Source of the DNA: Escherichia phage JEP8
DNA: 64,000 nt
Sequence record: MT764208.1
Reading direction: 5' to 3' (one strand)
Part shown: piece after piece, positions 887 through 38,015 of the stretch
Layout: every line of letters starts with the position of its first letter
Position numbering within the stretch: position 1 is the stretch's first letter
The notes under the pieces: model-generated
Told to the model about the DNA's origin: nothing
Databases searched by the model: none
What the model saw: only the letters and a program-made list of their open reading frames with translations
Made by a program: the position numbers and the translations under genes

Positions 887-2000
887 CATTATGTTCAGCG
901 CGGTTCGCTACTCCCGCGCCCGTTCTCTTGCGAACTGCTACATGTCACCATGTAGATCAGACTATATCACATTCTCATAGAGAATCCTGCCATTTCGAAT
1001 CGCTTGATTCTACTCTACTCGGTTCGTTACCCTTTCGATAGTCGTTGAACAACTGCATCTTTAAGCTCATTTTGATCAAACGGTGTTCTCTTACAGTACC
1101 CGCTATAATTCTTAGCAAAAGGTTTCTTCTTACCAAAGATCTCTTTTCCTGAATTATGTGCTTCAACAAGAAAATTCACCATTTCATCAAATGTGAAACT
1201 TGCAAATTTAGCATAAGTTTCATTACGTTTTGACATTATTTTACTCATAACTTCCGGTCGTTTAGACGCTGAATTTTCGCGTTTCTCGCCAGTATTAAAT
1301 GATACCAACTCACCGGAAACATATCTAGGATCATCACAACTAACTCTAAACCGATTTCCTTCATTATCCTTAACGATAACAGTATTCTTTAGCTTTTCTG
1401 CCATAGAATCAAGACCTTTTCGTATAGTGTCCTCATCAGCCCCGAAATATTTCTTTCCGCTCATATCGGTTCTGGCTTTTCCGGTCTTGTTTTCGGATAT
1501 TTTCAGTCTAACTTCCTCTCGCTTGGCTGGGTTATTGTCTCCAGCGAATGCATCTTTGGTTAACGCCTTCACTTTATCGTCATAAGATCCTCTAGAGATG
1601 AAAGCATATGCTCTCTTGCATTCACCGTTATTGAATATTAAGCACAATAACCGATGCGCCTCGACGTGGTCTTCAAACTTAAGCCTAACAAGATTCCATT
1701 TATCTAACCGATATTCAGGGAACATTGACTTCGGGCATATATGATGCACCTCGGAATATTCTTCACCCTGATACGGATTAGACACCAGTTTAATGTAGTC
1801 GTTTAATGCTTCCTCGTTATGTATTTCGTACTTTCTTAAAATGTCTTTCATCTCGCGCCTCCAATGTATATCAATATCTATATACATTATAAGACACGTT
1901 AGCTCAAAATGCAACTGCTGCTGATTGTCTCCTTAGAGATTTCCCAGCAATTAAGCAGGTTATTCGATCACTGTCACCAGTGAAAGCCCCATATCAGTTT
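887..2000 (-). mobile_element. Putative group I intron in gene 43 carrying an HNH homing endonuclease ORF
   Basis: Upstream exon ends ...ACU UCC CU (U at 2001); intervening sequence ends with G at 887; joining restores T-S-L-Y-P-S. GGGG at intron nt 11-14 can pair with exon CCCU (P1, G-U at splice site). P-like AAUUGCUGGGAAA and Q-like AAUCAGCAGC (UGCUG/CAGCA pairing), S-like GAUAUAGUC, and GNRA-capped hairpins (CACUG-GUGA-CAGUG; CUACAUG-GUGA-CAUGUAG). Confidence 0.6.
1027..1851 (-). CDS. HNH homing endonuclease (encoded inside the gene 43 intervening sequence)
   Basis: HNH motif EVHHICPKS...WNLVRL...EDHVEAH. ORF track 1027..1914 trimmed to the ATG at 1851 (MKDILRKYEIHNEE...), which has GGAGG 6 nt upstream. 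Confidence 0.8.
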   Translation of the reverse strand: MKDILRKYEIHNEEALNDYIKLVSNPYQGEEYSEVHHICPKSMFPEYRLDKWNLVRLKFEDHVEAHRLLCLIFNNGECKRAYAFISRGSYDDKVKALTKDAFAGDNNPAKREEVRLKISENKTGKARTDMSGKKYFGADEDTIRKGLDSMAEKLKNTVIVKDNEGNRFRVSCDDPRYVSGELVSFNTGEKRENSASKRPEVMSKIMSKRNETYAKFASFTFDEMVNFLVEAHNSGKEIFGKKKPFAKNYSGYCKRTPFDQNELKDAVVQRLSKG

Positions 2001-3202
2001 AGGGAAGTAAGGTCAAAGCTCATCATCCAACGGTAAGCATTCGGCACAGGTTCTTTTACAAATGCGCCTGGATAAGTCTGCTTAGGCTGTATCTTATTTT
2101 CCGGTACTACTTTACCCTCTGCTTTCAGAGATCCGAAGATAATAGCATCCCATACCTTCATCGGGTTATATACATGGTTAAACTTAATTTTCGCATAGAA
2201 ACATAGACTATACACAAGATCGATAAATCCACGCTTTTTATCAATCGCCAGCACACGGTCAACGTCGCCGATGTTATAATCGATGTAAAGTTGATGGTTG
2301 TCATCACGCAATTTCTTTAATGGACCATCATAATCAACCTTACCGATTCCTGTCTCATATTCAGCAACATAATCTAATGCATATGTTGGTTGAGTCGTAA
2401 AGCTAAATTTCTTGTACAGGTCAATATAATCAAGGCTTTCGATCCCCATGATCGTAAATGCTTCACGCTCGTTGCCAAAATCATCCTGTGAGATTCTGGA
2501 TTTAATCTTACCGCACGGGCTTAGACGGTTTGCCGTTCGACTTCCAAACTTATTCCCGATACGTTTAATGATATATGGAATATCGAATGTTTCTGTGTTC
2601 CAGCCAGTGAAACCAACGGGTCGGTTTTCCTCAAAGAATCGGATGTATTCTAACAGCAATTCATCTTCTGTGTCATAAACGTTATAAACAACGCGCTCCA
2701 CAATATCAGGTCGAAGAATAGACTTGCTTGCTTCCCAGATTTCACCGTTTTTTCCTTTCAAATCAAATACAAAGAAACGATCATGTAAGGAATCATAATG
2801 CGTAATTGCATCGATAGGATATTTCGCTTCTTCTGGTTTAGGAAATTCTGGGGCAGTGACCTCAATATCAACCCACGCTACACGGATTTTATTTCGGTCA
2901 TATCGAATCTCGCCTTTATATGTATCGGACAGATAGGAGATGATAAAATCATCCATCCCTAGTGCCTCTTGCCCCATTTCCCCCATCTTTTTACGCCATT
3001 TGTTGGCCTCGTTCATAGATGGGAATTTTTTAGCAATGCAAGGCTTGCCATAGATATCTTTATAATTCGTAACCATACCAGGCGCGGCATGATGAAATAA
3101 AGTTGGCGTATATTCAACGTAACGCTCTTGTTCTTGTCCAGCATCATCAATATAACGCTCGTAGATCTTATCACCCACTCGCTCACATGACAGAAAATAC
3201 AT
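2001..3202 (-). CDS. 43: DNA polymerase gp43, upstream (N-terminal) exon
   Basis: MYFLSCERVGDKIYERYIDD...DIEV...FDLTSL matches the T4 gp43 N-terminus and 3'-5' exonuclease region (DIEVT, YIDLY...). ATG at 3202 preceded by GGAGGA; the track start at 3232 is GTG. Frame stops with TGA (1994-1996) just past the proposed 5' splice site. Confidence 0.9.
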
Positions 3203-3234
3203 AATATAAACTCCTCCACTTACGAAAGACACTC

Positions 3235-3263
3235 ATTATAGGGGAATCGACTTGGTTTGTCAA
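3235..3263 (-). promoter_or_regulatory. sigma70-type early promoter upstream of gene 43 (TTGACA-N17-TATAAT)
   Basis: Minus strand: TTGACA (3263..3258), 17-nt spacer, TATAAT (3240..3235), then GGAGGA RBS and ATG at 3202. Confidence 0.6.
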
Positions 3264-3284
3264 TACCCCTATCCCATCAGTATC

Positions 3285-3647
3285 TTAGCGTCCGATCTGA
3301 TATTTCTCGATCAGAGTCCACTCTTCTTTCTGTTTGAAAGACAGTACACGGAAATTATTAACTTCGGTAGTTTCAAAATCACTATCAATTAGGGTACATA
3401 GATTCCACTGCGCCAGAAGTTTTGCAATGTTATTACGGCGTAATTCATCTTCCCACGTCATTTTAACACTACGACCATCTAATTTCAACAACTCCTTGAA
3501 ATGAACGATGTAATAGCGCCCTTTCTTCTGGAGAATATGACAAGACTGATACAGAGTCTTGTCTCGATTGTTGGCAATGCCGCAGCGGGTTAAAGTCTCC
3601 TTAATTTTAAGGAAGTTTTCAGGACTAATCAAATTAATTTCAATCAT
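3285..3647 (-). CDS. regA: Translational repressor RegA
   Basis: MIEINLISPENFLKIKETLTRCGIANNRDKTLYQSCHILQKKGRYYIVHFKE... closely matches T4 RegA; position between 62 and 43 as in T4. Confidence 0.9.
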   Translation of the reverse strand: MIEINLISPENFLKIKETLTRCGIANNRDKTLYQSCHILQKKGRYYIVHFKELLKLDGRSVKMTWEDELRRNNIAKLLAQWNLCTLIDSDFETTEVNNFRVLSFKQKEEWTLIEKYQIGR

Positions 3648-3648
3648 T

Positions 3649-4227
3649 TTACCACCTTTCTATAATCTTTTTAAGTCGTTTCCTTTCTGTCTGATTCTTA
3701 GTAACACCCGCCAAAAGTTCATCGGTCGCATACGGTTTAATGTGCTTCAATAACTTGTCCATATATCCCTTTTCATTAGCCAAATCGAGATAAAACCGGG
3801 CGTCATCCATATTTACACAATATGCTTTCGCCACTGCCGTTAAAACCAATTTTTGGTCCAATTCTTCTGTTAGTTTAGCCCATTTACCGTATCGTTTCCC
3901 CTTAGAAATACTCTGTAAGAGATAATCAAAATGCATTTGATCTGGGAGGCCATGACCGATTAAATTCATCACATACGCGCTATATAGACAATCTGCGTGC
4001 TGGGAAAGAGCGGTGTTAATCCATCTCTGGTTATATGCAGAATTGTTTCCCACATTAACGCGCTGTTTATCTAAGGTGATATGATCCATCAGAGCAAATA
4101 ATGCATTGTCGGTTTTCTCGGTGAACGTGTCCGCTAATTCAGACACCTTTTCCCAATCACGAGAGCGCCATGCAATTTCATGCTCGTTTAATTGTGTATC
4201 ATCTTCACCGAAAAATTGACCTAACAT
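3649..4227 (-). CDS. 62: Clamp loader small subunit gp62
   Basis: Size and position between 44 and regA; motifs NEHEIAW..DW, MNLIGHGL, KGKRYGKWAKL match T4 gp62. Confidence 0.85.
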   Translation of the reverse strand: MLGQFFGEDDTQLNEHEIAWRSRDWEKVSELADTFTEKTDNALFALMDHITLDKQRVNVGNNSAYNQRWINTALSQHADCLYSAYVMNLIGHGLPDQMHFDYLLQSISKGKRYGKWAKLTEELDQKLVLTAVAKAYCVNMDDARFYLDLANEKGYMDKLLKHIKPYATDELLAGVTKNQTERKRLKKIIERW

Positions 4228-31983: not shown

Positions 31984-32382
31984 TTAAGCCAGTCGAGTGA
32001 GTTTATAAATTGTTTTAAAGCATAGAGCTTTGATATCGTCTAAAACGCTCTGTAACGAGCTATCAACATCATTATAAATCTCACTAGCCATTTGCGTTAA
32101 CTCTTGCAAATAGGCAATTTCGCTCATCTCCTTGCGGACGACCAACGTTGGCTGATAACGACCAGTGATCCCAATATTGGTTTCAGTGAAATCATCAACC
32201 AATTCTTGCATTTCAAGATAGAACTCTTCTAGAGCCTTATGTTTTGCATAAGATCCAGGACCAGTTACTCCAAAATGCGCAGAATGCATATAAGTAACAC
32301 TCATCAGACATTCACCGATAAAGCGGTCAACTTTATTAGCTTTCCCCTCTTCGGACGTCTTTAGAAAATCAATGAATTTCAT
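31984..32382 (-). CDS. Hypothetical protein, possibly ferritin/Dps-like four-helix bundle (weak)
   Basis: Start trimmed to MKFIDFLK...; motif HSAHFGVTGPGSYAKHKALEEFY loosely resembles Dps helix A/B region. Confidence 0.4.
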   Translation of the reverse strand: MKFIDFLKTSEEGKANKVDRFIGECLMSVTYMHSAHFGVTGPGSYAKHKALEEFYLEMQELVDDFTETNIGITGRYQPTLVVRKEMSEIAYLQELTQMASEIYNDVDSSLQSVLDDIKALCFKTIYKLTRLA

Positions 32383-32671
32383 GTTCTTTATTCTCCATAT
32401 TATGCAACATAACAAACTGTTGTGCGGCATATTCCCCCATAATAAAACACTGCTTAGAATCCATACATTTACTACGAGCATACATCTTCATAATATGGGC
32501 ATGAAATTTCTGGCTGGTTTCAATGGAAGGAGATATTTTGTTTACATATACTATCATTGCACCGTCGAAATAATCAGTAAAGTCACCAGTTGGATCATAT
32601 TGATCAGCACTGACGCTTCCGACCGCAGTAAAGCATATTGCCGCTGTTAGAGTTTTACGAATAAATGACAT
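32369..32671 (-). CDS. Hypothetical secreted/periplasmic protein
   Basis: N-terminal signal-peptide-like MSFIRKTLTAAICFTAVGSVSA. Confidence 0.5.
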   Translation of the reverse strand: MSFIRKTLTAAICFTAVGSVSADQYDPTGDFTDYFDGAMIVYVNKISPSIETSQKFHAHIMKMYARSKCMDSKQCFIMGEYAAQQFVMLHNMENKEHEIH

Positions 32672-32740: not shown

Positions 32741-33337
32741 TTAGTTGGTAGTACCATCAATAAAATGTTTACGGCACACAGAAACATATTTATCCTCTGC
32801 ACCAACTTCGATTTGAGCACCATCGCGAATAACATTACCCTCTTTATCTACACGAAGGACCATTGTTGCTTTCTTGCCACAATGACAAATACCCTTCATT
32901 TCGACCAGTTTATCAGCAAATGCCATTAATGCCGCAGATCCTTCAAATAGATTGCCCTGAAAGTCAGTGCGAAGGCCATAGCACAGTACAGGGATATTTG
33001 CATCATCAACAAGCGCACACAAGCCTAAAACATGCTCTTTAGTCATAAATTGGGCTTCATCTACAAAAACTGCATCTGGACGCCATCGATCCGGTCTACG
33101 CTTACCTAACGATTCACGATAAACCAAGTCGAAAAGATCATCCGATTTAGTGAAGGTGATCGCTGGAGCACTTAGGCCAATTCGGGAAACAACTTCACTT
33201 TCTGAATCTCGATTATCAATCGCTGGCTTAAGAATTAATACTCGCATATCACGTTCGGTATAGTTATAAGCACTTTGTAACAGGGAAGTTGATTTGCCAG
33301 CGTTCATAGATGCATAGTAGAAATATAATTGCGCCAT
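32741..33337 (-). CDS. tk: Thymidine kinase
   Basis: P-loop MNAGKST near the N-terminus, DEAQF, and C-terminal Zn-binding cysteines (C..C...C..H); 198 aa. Confidence 0.9.
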   Translation of the reverse strand: MAQLYFYYASMNAGKSTSLLQSAYNYTERDMRVLILKPAIDNRDSESEVVSRIGLSAPAITFTKSDDLFDLVYRESLGKRRPDRWRPDAVFVDEAQFMTKEHVLGLCALVDDANIPVLCYGLRTDFQGNLFEGSAALMAFADKLVEMKGICHCGKKATMVLRVDKEGNVIRDGAQIEVGAEDKYVSVCRKHFIDGTTN

Positions 33338-33630
33338 TAATTAATCTCCAAAAATCCAGCAAGACCTAAACCGATATAAACCCAGATACAAAGGAAAAAG
33401 AAGCAAACACCCATAGCAAAGATAAATCCGCGTAGTGTCTTTGGATAACCTACCCAATATTCCCGACCATCTTCTAACCGGATCAGCTTATTTCCTTGAG
33501 AGTCCATATCAATTACAACATGTTTATTTCTGGATTGTAACAGATACTGCTTGACAATCTCAATACCCGCCATAATAACAATAACGAAAATAAAAGTCCA
33601 CACAACAAGATTAATGATAGTCTCAAGCAT
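33337..33630 (-). CDS. Hypothetical membrane protein
   Basis: Two hydrophobic segments. Confidence 0.5.
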   Translation of the reverse strand: MLETIINLVVWTFIFVIVIMAGIEIVKQYLLQSRNKHVVIDMDSQGNKLIRLEDGREYWVGYPKTLRGFIFAMGVCFFFLCIWVYIGLGLAGFLEIN

Positions 33631-33865
33631 TTTCTATCACCTCCACCCAATCAGGTGTTTCCTGAAAGACTCCTTCGCCTTCATGATGGTCGCAACCTTT
33701 ATTGCTGCAATACATCCACCAATCCCACATTCCCCACGGTAAACGATGCATATCGTCGTTACAGCAAGTGAAGATGATAGGCCAACCACATCTACCACAA
33801 CGGCAGTTTTCCTTCATGTGAGCGGTATTAGGCTTCTTCATAGATGACTCCAATATAATCGACAT
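33623..33865 (-). CDS. Hypothetical Zn-ribbon-like protein
   Basis: CRCGRCGW...CCND...CSNKGCDHH. Confidence 0.5.
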   Translation of the reverse strand: MSIILESSMKKPNTAHMKENCRCGRCGWPIIFTCCNDDMHRLPWGMWDWWMYCSNKGCDHHEGEGVFQETPDWVEVIENA

Positions 33866-34068
33866 TTACATTTAGGGCAATGCGGTTCTTTAATATAATA
33901 CCCGTCTGTCTTCGGAACACTAACAGGAGCGGTTTTTATATTGTATTCAGTGAAACAACGAAAACAAGTTACGTTTTCTACAGACTGACGTTTCACCCAA
34001 TCACCGGAATATAGATCATTTTTATTTGTCATATTCAACCACCACAATGTTAATGTCTGGAGTAGCAA
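33838..34068 (-). CDS. Hypothetical Zn-ribbon-like protein
   Basis: CFRCF...CPKCKC. Confidence 0.45.
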   Translation of the reverse strand: MLLQTLTLWWLNMTNKNDLYSGDWVKRQSVENVTCFRCFTEYNIKTAPVSVPKTDGYYIKEPHCPKCKCRLYWSHL

Positions 34069-34477
34069 TATTAATGATCTCTTCTACACATTCCCACTCA
34101 AGGCCACCGATACCGCAACCGATTTTAGGAATATAGAAAGGCTGTATAGCACCCTCAAAAACATCATTGAGAGACTCAAATCCTTTCAGGATAGCACCAT
34201 ATTCAGCATTTGGACCCGGTCGGAATTGGGTATAGAGATTCACCCCGCACCAGTTATAACCATTAACTTGATGCGTCCAGATACTAAACCCACCCAACTT
34301 TTCTACCTTACCGCGAGAAGTTTGCTTGTCAATCTCTAACGCTTGCGGGAACTCTTTCGCGATCTTCGCAGCAATACCAGCGCCCATAGTATGAAAACAA
34401 TTACAACCATGAATTAAATGACCGTTTCCTTGTTTAAACAGGGCGATGAGATCGCCCTTTACAGTATCAATAATCAT
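34022..34477 (-). CDS. Macro-domain protein (TARG1/OARD1-like ADP-ribose-processing fold)
   Basis: GDLIAL...HGCNCFHTMGAGIAAKIAKEFP...PKIGCGIGGLEWECVEEII resembles the TARG1-type macro domain pattern. Confidence 0.6.
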   Translation of the reverse strand: MIIDTVKGDLIALFKQGNGHLIHGCNCFHTMGAGIAAKIAKEFPQALEIDKQTSRGKVEKLGGFSIWTHQVNGYNWCGVNLYTQFRPGPNAEYGAILKGFESLNDVFEGAIQPFYIPKIGCGIGGLEWECVEEIINIATPDINIVVVEYDK

Positions 34478-34492
34478 AATATAAACCTCTCA

Positions 34493-34852
34493 TTAGTCAC
34501 GGGAAGACAACCCAGCCATAAAACGGCTTAACAGTGTGTCGCGATAAGCAAAGCATAATTGCTTATCAGGGGCAGTATCACACAGGTTGCGTTTTGTTTT
34601 AGCAAAGCTGGCAATACTCAGATCCCATGCTCGATTTTTTCGTTTTTCGTCTCGACCTTGTTTATATGCTTCATCAAGTTCGAGCGCGATAAAATCACTA
34701 CACATGTTATCATCATCACAGAAAGTTTTAATGATCTTTTTGTTGATCTCAAATCCTTTGTATTCGAACTTTGGATAAGGGCGCTCATTACTAGCAAGCG
34801 CACCAGCCGAGAACATCATAACAATCATAGCAATTATTGTCAACTTTTTCAT
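34493..34852 (-). CDS. Hypothetical secreted protein
   Basis: Signal peptide MKKLTIIAMIVMMFSAGALA. Confidence 0.5.
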   Translation of the reverse strand: MKKLTIIAMIVMMFSAGALASNERPYPKFEYKGFEINKKIIKTFCDDDNMCSDFIALELDEAYKQGRDEKRKNRAWDLSIASFAKTKRNLCDTAPDKQLCFAYRDTLLSRFMAGLSSRD

Positions 34853-34859
34853 ATATTCC

Positions 34860-35450
34860 TCAATAGCGTTTAGTCTTAAGAATGCCTTTACTCTTTAGAT
34901 GGTTAGCCTTTTTTAGTACGTCATCAGCATAACCTAATCCGGCTTTATAGTTCCATCCAGCATTGTAAGAAGCTAGCGCGAGTCTGATATTACCGTTTCG
35001 AATATCCAGCCAGTATGCTAACTCATCCATCGCGTAGAATGCAGAAACCTCGCGATTCATGATAAAGTTGATAGTCTGGCGATCACTCATTTTAACACCG
35101 CGCTTTGCATTTTTCGCTTTCACCGTTTTAAGGTAATTTTGAAATAATCCATAAGCATGATGATTTTTCTTTGGTGCTAAGTTTGCACCCGCGCTTGATT
35201 CTTGCCATGCGATACCCGCCAGGATGTGACCTAAACCCTTTCCGTTATAGCGAATATTCGGATGGTACTTTTTCAACTTACCGCTTTTCTCGAATTGCTC
35301 GCCGTATTGATAGGCGAAATGTAAATTATCTAGTTGGTGTGCTGTAAAGTTGTCTATCGGCGCTTTTTTGATCGGTGCGCTAGTCGATGCGTGTGTAGCA
35401 CCAACGGCTAGTGACAGACTCAATACTATCGCTTTTAGAACTTTTAACAT
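34860..35450 (-). CDS. Secreted lytic transglycosylase (SLT)-domain protein
   Basis: Signal peptide MLKVLKAIVLSLSLAVGATHA; SLT-like motifs IAWQESS and AYGLFQ. Confidence 0.6.
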   Translation of the reverse strand: MLKVLKAIVLSLSLAVGATHASTSAPIKKAPIDNFTAHQLDNLHFAYQYGEQFEKSGKLKKYHPNIRYNGKGLGHILAGIAWQESSAGANLAPKKNHHAYGLFQNYLKTVKAKNAKRGVKMSDRQTINFIMNREVSAFYAMDELAYWLDIRNGNIRLALASYNAGWNYKAGLGYADDVLKKANHLKSKGILKTKRY

Positions 35451-35535
35451 TAATTTCTCCTGTTTGGCTTAACTTTCTGATTTCATAATATAGCCCTATC
35501 ACCAGAAAGTCAAGCATTAACTCAACCAATTTCCA

Positions 35536-35958
35536 TTATTGGTCTACCTTCAAAACAACCGCCGACATTTTACCCGCCAGTCGTTTTGGATTCTCTATAA
35601 TCATTCGGCAGCATAGACCGTGATATGGCTTACCCTCTTCGATTAGATCTACTGTCATCCCGATCCACATGTTACCGTCAGTAATTTCTAATCGATTAGG
35701 TCGGTCTTCCATTTTCAGGAAGTCGAAGATCTCCGGCAAACGAGTTTCTATCTTATTGAATAGTTCCATTGTCTTATGTTCATCGATATGACGATCGGTT
35801 AGACGGTCGATCATATGCGGACTAAAGCGAATGAAAATATACTCGCCGTAACCATCATTCAAGCACTTTTCTTTGATCTGCGCATTGGTTTTGCGCATTT
35901 CGGTTTCGAAGAATCTACGCAGCTTACTACGGCGAACATGTACGTTAATTGTTTCCAT
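35536..35958 (-). CDS. regB: Endoribonuclease RegB
   Basis: From the internal Met: METINVHVRRSKLRRFFE...RLEITDGNMWIGMTV...CRMIIENPKRLAGKMSAVVLK matches T4 RegB. Confidence 0.8.
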   Translation of the reverse strand: METINVHVRRSKLRRFFETEMRKTNAQIKEKCLNDGYGEYIFIRFSPHMIDRLTDRHIDEHKTMELFNKIETRLPEIFDFLKMEDRPNRLEITDGNMWIGMTVDLIEEGKPYHGLCCRMIIENPKRLAGKMSAVVLKVDQ

Positions 35959-35962
35959 TTTA

Positions 35963-36298
35963 TTATCCTTTCTTAAACAAATTGCGAAGCCAGTATACAA
36001 ACGGGATTTCTTTAAACTTGAACTTGTCAATAGTTAATTCTTTAGTAGCAAGATGAATACCATAAGCATCATGTGTAACTATATGCCATTTTCTATAGTC
36101 CAAATGTGAACAACCGTCTGGATCTAGGTTAATAAGAGTTTCTCGCTCACTAGGATTATTTTTCCACAATTTTGTAATAGGATCGCACATAATTCGACCT
36201 AGCGTACCATGAATAATCTCACAACGGTAAAGTTTTCCAGCAGTGAGATAGGCGCACCCGTCATAGTCGGTATAAACAAACACTTCTTTAACACTCAT
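35963..36298 (-). CDS. Hypothetical protein, DGxCSHL small-paralog family
   Basis: DPDGCSHLDYRKWHIV; start at the ATG with AGGAGTATTAAA leader (the ORF-track start overlaps the promoter). Confidence 0.5.
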   Translation of the reverse strand: MSVKEVFVYTDYDGCAYLTAGKLYRCEIIHGTLGRIMCDPITKLWKNNPSERETLINLDPDGCSHLDYRKWHIVTHDAYGIHLATKELTIDKFKFKEIPFVYWLRNLFKKG

Positions 36299-36319
36299 TT
36301 TAATACTCCTTTGTTTCGA

Positions 36320-36355
36320 TGGGGGTATATTACTACCCCCGATCATGTGTGTCAA
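36320..36355 (-). promoter_or_regulatory. sigma70-type early promoter cassette (TTGACA-N17-TAATAT)
   Basis: Minus strand TTGACA (36355..36350) followed by TAATAT and the CCCAUCGAAACAAAGGAG leader. Confidence 0.5.
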
Positions 36356-36616
36356 CTACTTTTTCAAGATTTTTTTGATCACATTCCAAAGACCTTTATT
36401 CTCAGGTTGTTTTGGTTCTTCGATCAGTGTCCATGTTCGACCGTCTAAGTGTGCACAATTTTTAAGACAAATAAAAATCTGGTGTCCCTTATCATCACGG
36501 ATATAACCACTATTCGCAAATCTTTCATGTGGTGTATATTCATACAGTGTATTTGGTGTAATATACTTGCGGTTACTATAAGGTGTCATCACATACATCA
36601 TGGTACTAACTCCCAT
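36356..36616 (-). CDS. Hypothetical protein, DGxCSHL small-paralog family
   Basis: GYIRDDKGHQIFICLKNCAHLDGRTWTL. Confidence 0.5.
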   Translation of the reverse strand: MGVSTMMYVMTPYSNRKYITPNTLYEYTPHERFANSGYIRDDKGHQIFICLKNCAHLDGRTWTLIEEPKQPENKGLWNVIKKILKK

Positions 36617-36792
36617 TTATCACCGCGAAGATGAGAACATCCACCATCAAGAAGGATCGTAATACGAAACCCCGCATCATCTTCAATATACCCGATAGTC
36701 GGTGGATGTTCGTCGTCTCGTGCCGGGGTAAAATCATACATCTTCCCCGGTGTGATATCATTGCCTTTATTGCTATTGGTATAAACTTGCAT
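36598..36792 (-). CDS. Hypothetical protein, DGxCSHL small-paralog family
   Basis: GYIEDDAGFRITILLDGGCSHLRGDKWEL. Confidence 0.5.
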   Translation of the reverse strand: MQVYTNSNKGNDITPGKMYDFTPARDDEHPPTIGYIEDDAGFRITILLDGGCSHLRGDKWELVP

Positions 36793-37598: not shown

Positions 37599-38015
37599 TT
37601 AGAGAGATTCGGTAAAGGTACGAGCGATAACATCACGTTGCTGGTCTGGAGTCAGACTATTGAAGCGCACTGCGTAACCAGAAACGCGAATTGTAAGCTG
37701 CGGGTACTTCTCAGGATGTTCAACAGCGTCCAGCAACATTTCTCGTAACAATACATTAACATTCAAATGCTGACCACCTTCGACAACCGGAGCACCATTA
37801 TCTACAATGACAGGACGGAAGCTAGTTGTGTGCAGTGCCAGCGAATCGACGTCTTCTGCGGTGATCACATGGTCTTCTGCGAAAGTTTTACTAACAATTA
37901 CTTTAGCACCGATCAGTGCTTTCGGTTCGGATACCAGAATCATAGGCGCGAAGTGTCCACCAATAATAGTACCTTTATGCTCACCTTTCATGATTTGAAT
38001 TGCTTTAAATTCCAT
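37599..38015 (-). CDS. Autonomous glycyl radical cofactor (GrcA/YfiD-like)
   Basis: C-terminal [61 protein letters not shown] nearly matches E. coli YfiD, including the RVSGY glycyl-radical motif. Confidence 0.85.

Follow-up and report, generated by a model that had tools for sequence, protein, structure and literature searches.

The question raised by two adjacent genes of Escherichia phage JEP8 (MT764208.1) is whether they equip the phage to export, early in infection, a muralytic enzyme and a companion protein into the envelope of its host. In the stretch of 64,000 nucleotides analyzed (the window) all genes at 32-38 kb lie on the minus strand, and the two ORFs are present there at 34860..35450 and 34493..34852. 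A preliminary description had stated that both products begin with Sec signal peptides, that the larger one carries a lytic transglycosylase domain, that they are made early and that such features are unusual for phage early proteins. The positions and the peptide strings that it quoted were recovered from the DNA, the coding strand being minus.

A region of 2.1 kb containing both ORFs shows 98.8-99.2% identity to members of the Krischvirus group (Shigella phage Sf20, RB49, Phi1, GEC-3S, and KFS-EC). In the annotation of Phi1 the two ORFs are named vs.1 and vs, with regB upstream and tk.4, tk, and rI downstream, and the order regB-vs.1-vs-tk.4 is identical in T4. The neighbors of vs.1 in the window are likewise regB, vs, a tk.4 macrodomain gene, tk, and rI, the latter represented by an RI antiholin homolog with a signal-like N-terminus (32369..32671, 2 kb from vs.1). 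The product of 34860..35450 matches the phrog_600 family HMM (1.3e-59), shares 53% identity with T4 Vs.1 (UniProt P13311; BLASTP E 1e-55) and is identical (100%) to the GEC-3S protein. The product of 34493..34852 matches the HMM of phrog_1256, a family labeled "valyl tRNA synthetase modifier" (2e-33), and shares 27% identity with T4 Vs (UniProt P13310; E 1e-8). Homologs of Vs.1 were found in more than 2000 phage records and those of Vs in 339; together with the strong HMM matches, these numbers indicate that both ORFs are genuine genes and not open by chance. Based on family HMMs, similarity to T4 and synteny, it can be stated with near certainty that 34860..35450 (minus strand) is vs.1, encoding a 196-aa precursor, and that 34493..34852 (minus strand) is vs, encoding a 119-aa precursor, both being the Krischvirus (RB49/Phi1-type) orthologs of the T4 genes. 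Both are long-catalogued T4 genes and are already known, an identity that the preliminary description did not recognize, as it also missed that the smaller ORF bears the valyl-tRNA synthetase modifier label; to this extent the result is routine, the rediscovery of two conserved, non-essential T4-type genes, one of them with an SLT similarity known for about twenty years.

The N-termini of Vs.1 (MLKVLKAIVLSLSLAVGATHAS) and Vs (MKKLTIIAMIVMMFSAGALASN) were examined with home-made rules covering the charge of the n-region, the best 10-residue hydrophobic window and small residues at -3/-1; the features expected of a Sec signal processed by signal peptidase I (SPase I) are a positive n-region, a hydrophobic h-region of 10-18 residues and small residues at -3/-1. 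In this rule-based scan Vs.1 displayed K3/K6, a 13-residue uncharged hydrophobic core and THA↓S at -3/-1, and Vs displayed K2/K3, an 18-residue uncharged hydrophobic core and ALA↓S. The predicted signal-peptide parts correspond to residues 1-21 of Vs.1 (MLKVLKAIVLSLSLAVGATHA↓S; 35388..35450, minus strand), delimited by the -3/-1 rule only, and to residues 1-20 of Vs (MKKLTIIAMIVMMFSAGALA↓S; 34793..34852, minus strand), delimited by the rule-based scan. In T4 Vs.1, cleavage is predicted just after AHS, near SEHTFSNVQLDNMR, and in T4 Vs just before D21 (DTSYTEIR). The signal segment of Vs.1 has low pLDDT in the AF2 model. By the same rules a signal-like N-terminus is kept in 24/25 relatives of Vs.1 and 80/86 relatives of Vs, unlike the N-terminal sequence itself, which is not conserved in either family. 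The relatives that fail the rules are mostly truncated gene calls, and the Vs annotated in phage MP1, which lacks the signal, regains MRLLALLFVPFLCFA↓NP when translation is started at an in-frame ATG lying 51 nt further upstream. Signal peptides are likewise present at the N-terminus of the Vs.1-like proteins of Ackermannviridae (PM10) and Felixounavirus (Alf5). Since the signal features are conserved while the sequence is not, export is the best reading for Vs.1 as well as for Vs, and both are predicted to leave the cytoplasm; the signal-peptide-like N-termini announced in the preliminary description are in fact present. The possibility that either protein is a lipoprotein processed by SPase II was rejected, as no Cys that could form a lipobox (L-[AS]-[GA]-C) occurs within the first 40 residues of Vs.1 or Vs.

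With respect to the enzymatic nature of Vs.1, residues 76-167 match the Pfam SLT domain (PF01464) with 25.6 bits, the gathering score being 21.3 bits. The E-value of this match (9.6e-6) is modest. The sequence contains GIAWQESSA and HAYGLFQN; SYNAGW, absent from the preliminary description, is present as well. In an alignment of 23 homologs (29-89% identity) Glu84 of WQES (motif I), the predicted catalytic acid, is invariant (23/23); its codon, GAA, was read directly at 35199..35201 on the minus strand. In motif II (G-L-M/F-Q, here YGLFQN) G101 is invariant, F103 and Q104 being kept in at least 90% of the sequences, and in motif III (A/S-Y-N-A-G, here SYNAG) S161, Y162, and G165 are invariant, with N163 and A164 conserved to at least 90%. 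When the profile of the Vs.1 family was compared with the PDB, the best sequence matches were EtgA (E 0.064) and MltD (E 0.52), both non-significant; in the EtgA alignment E84 coincides with the E of AWNES, and YNAG and the C-terminal helix align too. A phmmer search of the PDB with the single Vs.1 sequence returned chance matches only, and no NCBIfam family was found for Vs.1 or Vs. The AF2 model of Vs.1 (mean pLDDT 85.6, confident beyond the N-terminus) predicts an all-alpha, goose-lysozyme-like fold, for which Foldseek gave g-type lysozyme, MltD, and Slt as top matches, with probability about 1. The predicted mature protein has about 175 aa, 19.8 kDa and a pI of about 9.9. A paper of 2006 had already reported that vs.1 resembles SLT, giving E-values of 0.012-0.74 in six phages and citing earlier PSI-BLAST results (PMC1524935). 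With an SLT match above the gathering score and an intact catalytic Glu, the assignment of the larger ORF to the SLT/family-1 lytic transglycosylase-like proteins stands. Vs.1 is most likely a small exported protein of this type with putative catalytic activity, and that it is both exported and active as a lytic transglycosylase is considered quite likely from its sequence features.

The same data have to be weighed against the possibility that Vs.1 retains a transglycosylase fold and serves mainly in peptidoglycan binding or as a scaffold, with little or no catalysis. The SLT match is weak for an enzyme family, both in the bit score obtained here and in the E-values of 2006 (PMC1524935), and no reported activity was found in the literature, where searches for an export, cleavage or enzyme assay of Vs.1 or Vs, as well as for an experimental function of any Vs.1-like transglycosylase, retrieved no report. 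Across the 23 diverse homologs, little or no variation occurs in the catalytic Glu and the three family-1 motifs, as expected under selection for catalysis, which makes a non-catalytic Vs.1 improbable.

The preferred reading, an exported enzyme, includes its synthesis early in infection. A sigma-70-type promoter-like site (TTGACT-17-TATTAT) was detected by consensus scan at 35485..35513 (minus strand), within the 85-bp gap between regB and vs.1, and is followed by an AGGAG Shine-Dalgarno sequence upstream of the vs.1 ATG; the annotation of GEC-3S gives the same site as a promoter with -35/-10 signals. In T4, time-resolved omics placed vs and vs.1 in the early RNA / middle protein class, from which it follows that both T4 proteins were detected (PMC9697503 supplement). 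The early timing anticipated for the pair is supported by this promoter and by the early RNAs of the T4 orthologs. At the vs.1/vs junction (…TAT TGA GGA ATA T ATG; 34853..34866, minus strand, read directly) the Shine-Dalgarno sequence of vs contains the TGA stop codon of vs.1, with 7 nt from the stop to the vs start, which suggests translational coupling; an actual overlap of vs.1 and vs, 1-8 nt long, is seen in T4, Metamorpho, W16, Acj9, and FBB1. Vs.1 and Vs are probably produced in a translationally coupled manner.

The timing of expression is also relevant to the proposal that Vs.1 is a lysis accessory held by a SAR-type or uncleaved anchor, inactive at the inner membrane until depolarization at lysis. 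The h-region of Vs.1 is rich in small residues (AIVLSLSLAVGAT), an RI antiholin homolog is encoded 2 kb away, and the comparative paper of 2006 proposed "some role in cell lysis" (PMC1524935). On the other hand, the 13-residue uncharged core of the window protein, followed by THA↓S, agrees more with a signal that can be cleaved than with a helix spanning the membrane, although the median run in the Vs.1 family is 18 residues; and the T4 ortholog belongs to the early RNA / middle protein class and not to the late one. In addition, T4-type phages already possess the endolysin e and the holin t, and T4 tolerates insertions in vs.1, whereas t is essential. Taken together, a SAR-type lysis function for Vs.1 is considered improbable. 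As to the notion that exported proteins would be unusual among phage early products, it did not hold up: the early products of T4-type phages include several that are exported or located in the membrane, of which Spackle, an early periplasmic protein of T4 (PMC7677548), and RI are well known, and the claim is unsupported. A putative early exported transglycosylase is encoded in more than 2000 phage genomes distributed over at least three myovirus lineages (Straboviridae, Ackermannviridae, and Felixounavirus).

Of the two signal peptides, that of Vs is the more puzzling, as vs is annotated as a valyl-tRNA synthetase (ValRS) modifier. The predicted mature Vs has about 99 aa and 11.6 kDa. Cysteines C45, C51, C91, and C100 are invariant in 44/44 aligned sequences, and exactly four Cys past the signal, with the spacing C-x5-C … C-x8/10-C, occur in 80/86 relatives. 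The AF2 model contains four helices (pLDDT 78). A Foldseek search of the PDB with this model gave nothing significant; the weak matches to T6SS immunity proteins (probability 0.05-0.08) do not count as evidence of a relationship. With the single Vs sequence, phmmer against the PDB produced chance matches only. A Pfam HMM search found no family for Vs, PF26829 appearing only in precomputed annotations, where it is listed for cluster P0026, 97% identical to Vs. The family is small, comprising 27 clusters at 50% identity among 1.8 billion representatives searched, all of about 80-135 aa. The signal peptide and the four invariant Cys fit a disulfide-bonded periplasmic protein, a location that is moderately probable for Vs, and this conserved combination of predicted export signal and cysteines is hard to reconcile with the annotation as a cytoplasmic ValRS modifier.

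The annotation nevertheless represents a competing explanation, according to which Vs modifies ValRS in the cytoplasm, its N-terminus is not exported or only partly so, the synteny with vs.1 is inherited and only Vs.1 is periplasmic. [quoted passage not shown] In M9 minimal medium vs showed the strongest depletion in the HIDEN-SEQ transposon screen of T4, and a clean vs deletion impaired plaque formation specifically on minimal medium, a defect which the authors tie to ValRS modification (10.1101/2025.11.20.689424). The occurrence of Vs.1-like enzymes without Vs in other phage families also agrees with separate functions of the two proteins. Conversely, a signal-like N-terminus in 80 of the 86 relatives and four invariant Cys are unexpected for a protein of the reducing cytoplasm, and the phenotype in M9 is not a ValRS-specific test. 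Full-length T4 Vs with an N-terminal His tag was insoluble in E. coli (PMC8076793), which fits a precursor that cannot be exported, and a literature search did not retrieve a paper linking the genetic vs locus to the vs ORF. Weighing both sides, a cytoplasmic Vs is a real possibility that falls short of being probable. A strong internal promoter-like site lies within vs (34843..34815); a signal-less cytoplasmic isoform expressed from it was rejected, as the next in-frame ATG is M50 and a start there would delete C45.

If Vs is periplasmic, as preferred here, it may be functionally connected with Vs.1. The co-occurrence of the two genes was surveyed in 17 annotated phage loci scanned with HMMs for Vs.1 and Vs; a search for related loci with the Vs alignment confirmed 3 viral contigs, evaluated against the divergent first sequence of the alignment. 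In most T4-like genera of the 17-locus sample vs directly follows vs.1 (Tequatrovirus, Krischvirus, Jiaodavirus, Roskildevirus, Gualtarvirus, and five Acinetobacter phages), some of the vs.1-vs loci having a homing endonuclease upstream of vs.1 in place of regB, and in Pseudotevenvirus vs is located two genes further downstream. No Vs was found within 2 kb of the Vs.1-like gene in Ackermannviridae, Felixounavirus, Aeromonas phage AS-sw, and Vibrio phage D506, and these lone genes suggest that Vs.1 is the more widespread protein and Vs a T4-like addition. T4-like phages largely share their gene order in any case, and for this reason little can be concluded about a joint function from vs.1 and vs being neighbors.

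The transposon data on T4 have a bearing on this point. In the HIDEN-SEQ study both vs and vs.1 were non-essential on LB plates, and in liquid LB they received 26.6 and 22.6 reads per site, respectively, about 10-fold below flanking genes (tk.4, 289.6; regB, 178.6; vs.3, 652.1). In M9 the drop was clear for vs (log2FC -2.19, padj 0) and smaller for vs.1 (log2FC -0.87, p 0.0055, padj 0.155). This common profile fits a joint function and, to the same degree, a polar effect exerted on vs by insertions in vs.1; the HIDEN-SEQ authors argued that polarity is not widespread, without ruling out local effects. It can be hypothesized, as a somewhat doubtful proposal, that Vs.1 and Vs constitute a periplasmic two-protein module in which Vs is a disulfide-bonded regulator, inhibitor or targeting partner of Vs.1. 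If so, the vs ORF would either be distinct from the classical ValRS modifier or serve an additional function in the envelope, and the defect of T4 vs mutants on minimal medium would reflect an envelope phenotype that vs.1 has in common with vs.

Altogether, the locus is likely to encode an exported transglycosylase, Vs.1, and a signal-bearing four-Cys protein, Vs, co-transcribed from an early-type promoter. In the model that we propose, the two genes would be transcribed together, leftward, from the promoter between regB and vs.1 and translated in a coupled fashion. The Sec signal peptide would direct Vs.1 to the periplasm and be removed by signal peptidase I, after which the mature, basic enzyme of ~20 kDa would cleave the MurNAc-GlcNAc bond of the host peptidoglycan from early-middle infection onward. 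Vs, with ~100 residues in its mature four-helix form, would also be made with a signal peptide and become disulfide-bonded in the periplasm. Candidate purposes of this activity are local remodeling of the wall during infection, which the preliminary description had proposed and which is plausible, adaptation of the envelope in poor growth and an auxiliary contribution to lysis or superinfection. The name "valyl-tRNA synthetase modifier" has spread over hundreds of genomes for a protein whose sequence features predict a periplasmic location. Settling where Vs is located would either set right an annotation that has stood for decades or uncover a protein with two locations, an unusual case, and would help to explain mechanistically how vs affects fitness in a nutrient-dependent way.

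Among known systems the closest is T4 itself. T4 Vs.1 belongs to the same length class as the window protein and has a signal-like N-terminus, the E-S / GxFQ / SYNxG motifs and the position between regB and vs; the 53% identity covers the mature part, and the difference lies in the linker past the signal peptide, which is 13 residues longer in the window protein (STSAPIKKAPIDN), with otherwise nothing substantial. T4 Vs has the same size, four Cys, a signal-like N-terminus and the position directly downstream of vs.1, the second Cys pair being C-x8-C in the window and C-x10-C in T4. Compared with the GH23 enzymes Slt70, MltC, MltD, MltE, and MltF, Vs.1 is a bare catalytic domain with a short N-terminal helix, devoid of the lipobox, LysM, superhelical U/L domains and ABC-type module found among family-1 transglycosylases, with which it shares only 15-23% sequence identity.

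In architecture Vs.1 is similar to EtgA, a small Sec-exported transglycosylase of the EPEC T3SS, although the sequence similarity is marginal. Other specialized small transglycosylases of secretion and conjugation systems are IpgF, IagB, VirB1, and P19. Membership of Vs.1 in the secretion-system group (EtgA/IpgF/VirB1) was rejected, as no secretion-system genes occur among its neighbors. No partner comparable to EscI is known for Vs.1; a role of Vs as its partner is speculation. A further parallel is offered by T4 Spackle (gp61.3). No sequence or fold relationship between Spackle and Vs was detected, the fold search with Vs having given nothing significant. Spackle, small, helical and made early with a signal peptide, acts in the periplasm as an inhibitor of the gp5 tail lysozyme and sets a precedent for T4 making such a protein to act on a muralytic enzyme (PMC7677548, PMC7650644).

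The leftward gene block holding vs.1 and vs encodes further proteins with predicted membrane or export features, all of the window's genes considered here lying on the minus strand. The homologue of the RI antiholin at 32369..32671 (Pfam Antiholin 1.2e-23; phrog_1246) has a signal-like N-terminus of its own, MSFIRKTLTAAICFTAVGSVSA|DQ, the bar marking the predicted cleavage point, and is another predicted exported protein of the same block. Between tk and an ORF with a zinc-binding domain (33623..33865), an ORF of 97 aa (33337..33630) belongs to a family of unknown function (phrog_16027 at 5.5e-62); its two long hydrophobic segments make it a probable small inner-membrane protein. At 37599..38015 lies the orthologue of vs.6, a GrcA-like autonomous glycyl-radical cofactor, the annotation that it carries in T4 and Phi1.

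The mechanically called ORF of regB (35536..36030) opens with TTG and encodes 164 aa, while in related annotated genomes the gene starts 72 nt further in, yielding a protein of 141 aa equivalent to 35536..35958. The Pfam REGB_T4 match, which starts at residue 29 of the 164-aa ORF, agrees with the start of the 141-aa form. Upstream of regB, three consecutive small ORFs (35963..36355, 36356..36616, and 36598..36792) are paralogues of one another with 28-36% identity and have in common a motif around GC(S/A)HL…(R/K)xW; in Phi1 they are annotated as hypothetical ORF095-097 only.

Across the region, the sigma-70 consensus is matched most closely by TTGACA-17-TATGAT (34815..34843, minus strand; 11/12, with an extended -10 TG). 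This site falls within the first 13 codons of vs and is composed of the K-L-T and V-M-M codons of the signal peptide. The production of a useful signal-less Vs from this site is ruled out, since the next in-frame ATG corresponds to M50. The site could serve as a promoter for tk.4 and the genes downstream of it, or could have arisen by chance. Directly downstream of vs, the next gene is the orthologue of tk.4 (34022..34477), whose product contains a macrodomain (Pfam Macro 6e-7; phrog_335 1.5e-62). Recently, the T4 gene was renamed adfM and described as an anti-DarTG2 factor, with the removal of ADP-ribose from DNA proposed as its role (2025 preprint, 10.1101/2025.11.20.689424).

In Morganella phage MP1 (KX078569.1), vs probably does not start where it is annotated, at locus position 1477; beginning at the in-frame ATG of position 1426, the gene (1426..1725) gains a typical signal peptide, MRLLALLFVPFLCFA|NP. 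In Pseudotevenvirus, two unannotated ORFs of ~134 and 205-221 aa lie between vs.1 and the vs homologue (1866..3963 in the RB43 locus and 1902..3985 in that of Taquito). Salmonella phage PM10 (Ackermannviridae) and Escherichia phage Alf5 (Felixounavirus) carry a Vs.1-like predicted exported transglycosylase without vs, and in several records the gene is mislabelled "RegB endoribonuclease".

For the T4 pair, the authors of the preprint discussed only vs and did not mention its signal peptide (10.1101/2025.11.20.689424). In sheet S8 of their Extended Data Table 6, mutants with insertions in vs or in vs.1, grown in liquid LB, gave reads per site ~10-fold below those of the flanking genes, with a further drop in M9 (log2FC -2.19 for vs; -0.87 for vs.1, p 0.0055, padj 0.155) (10.1101/2025.11.20.689424).
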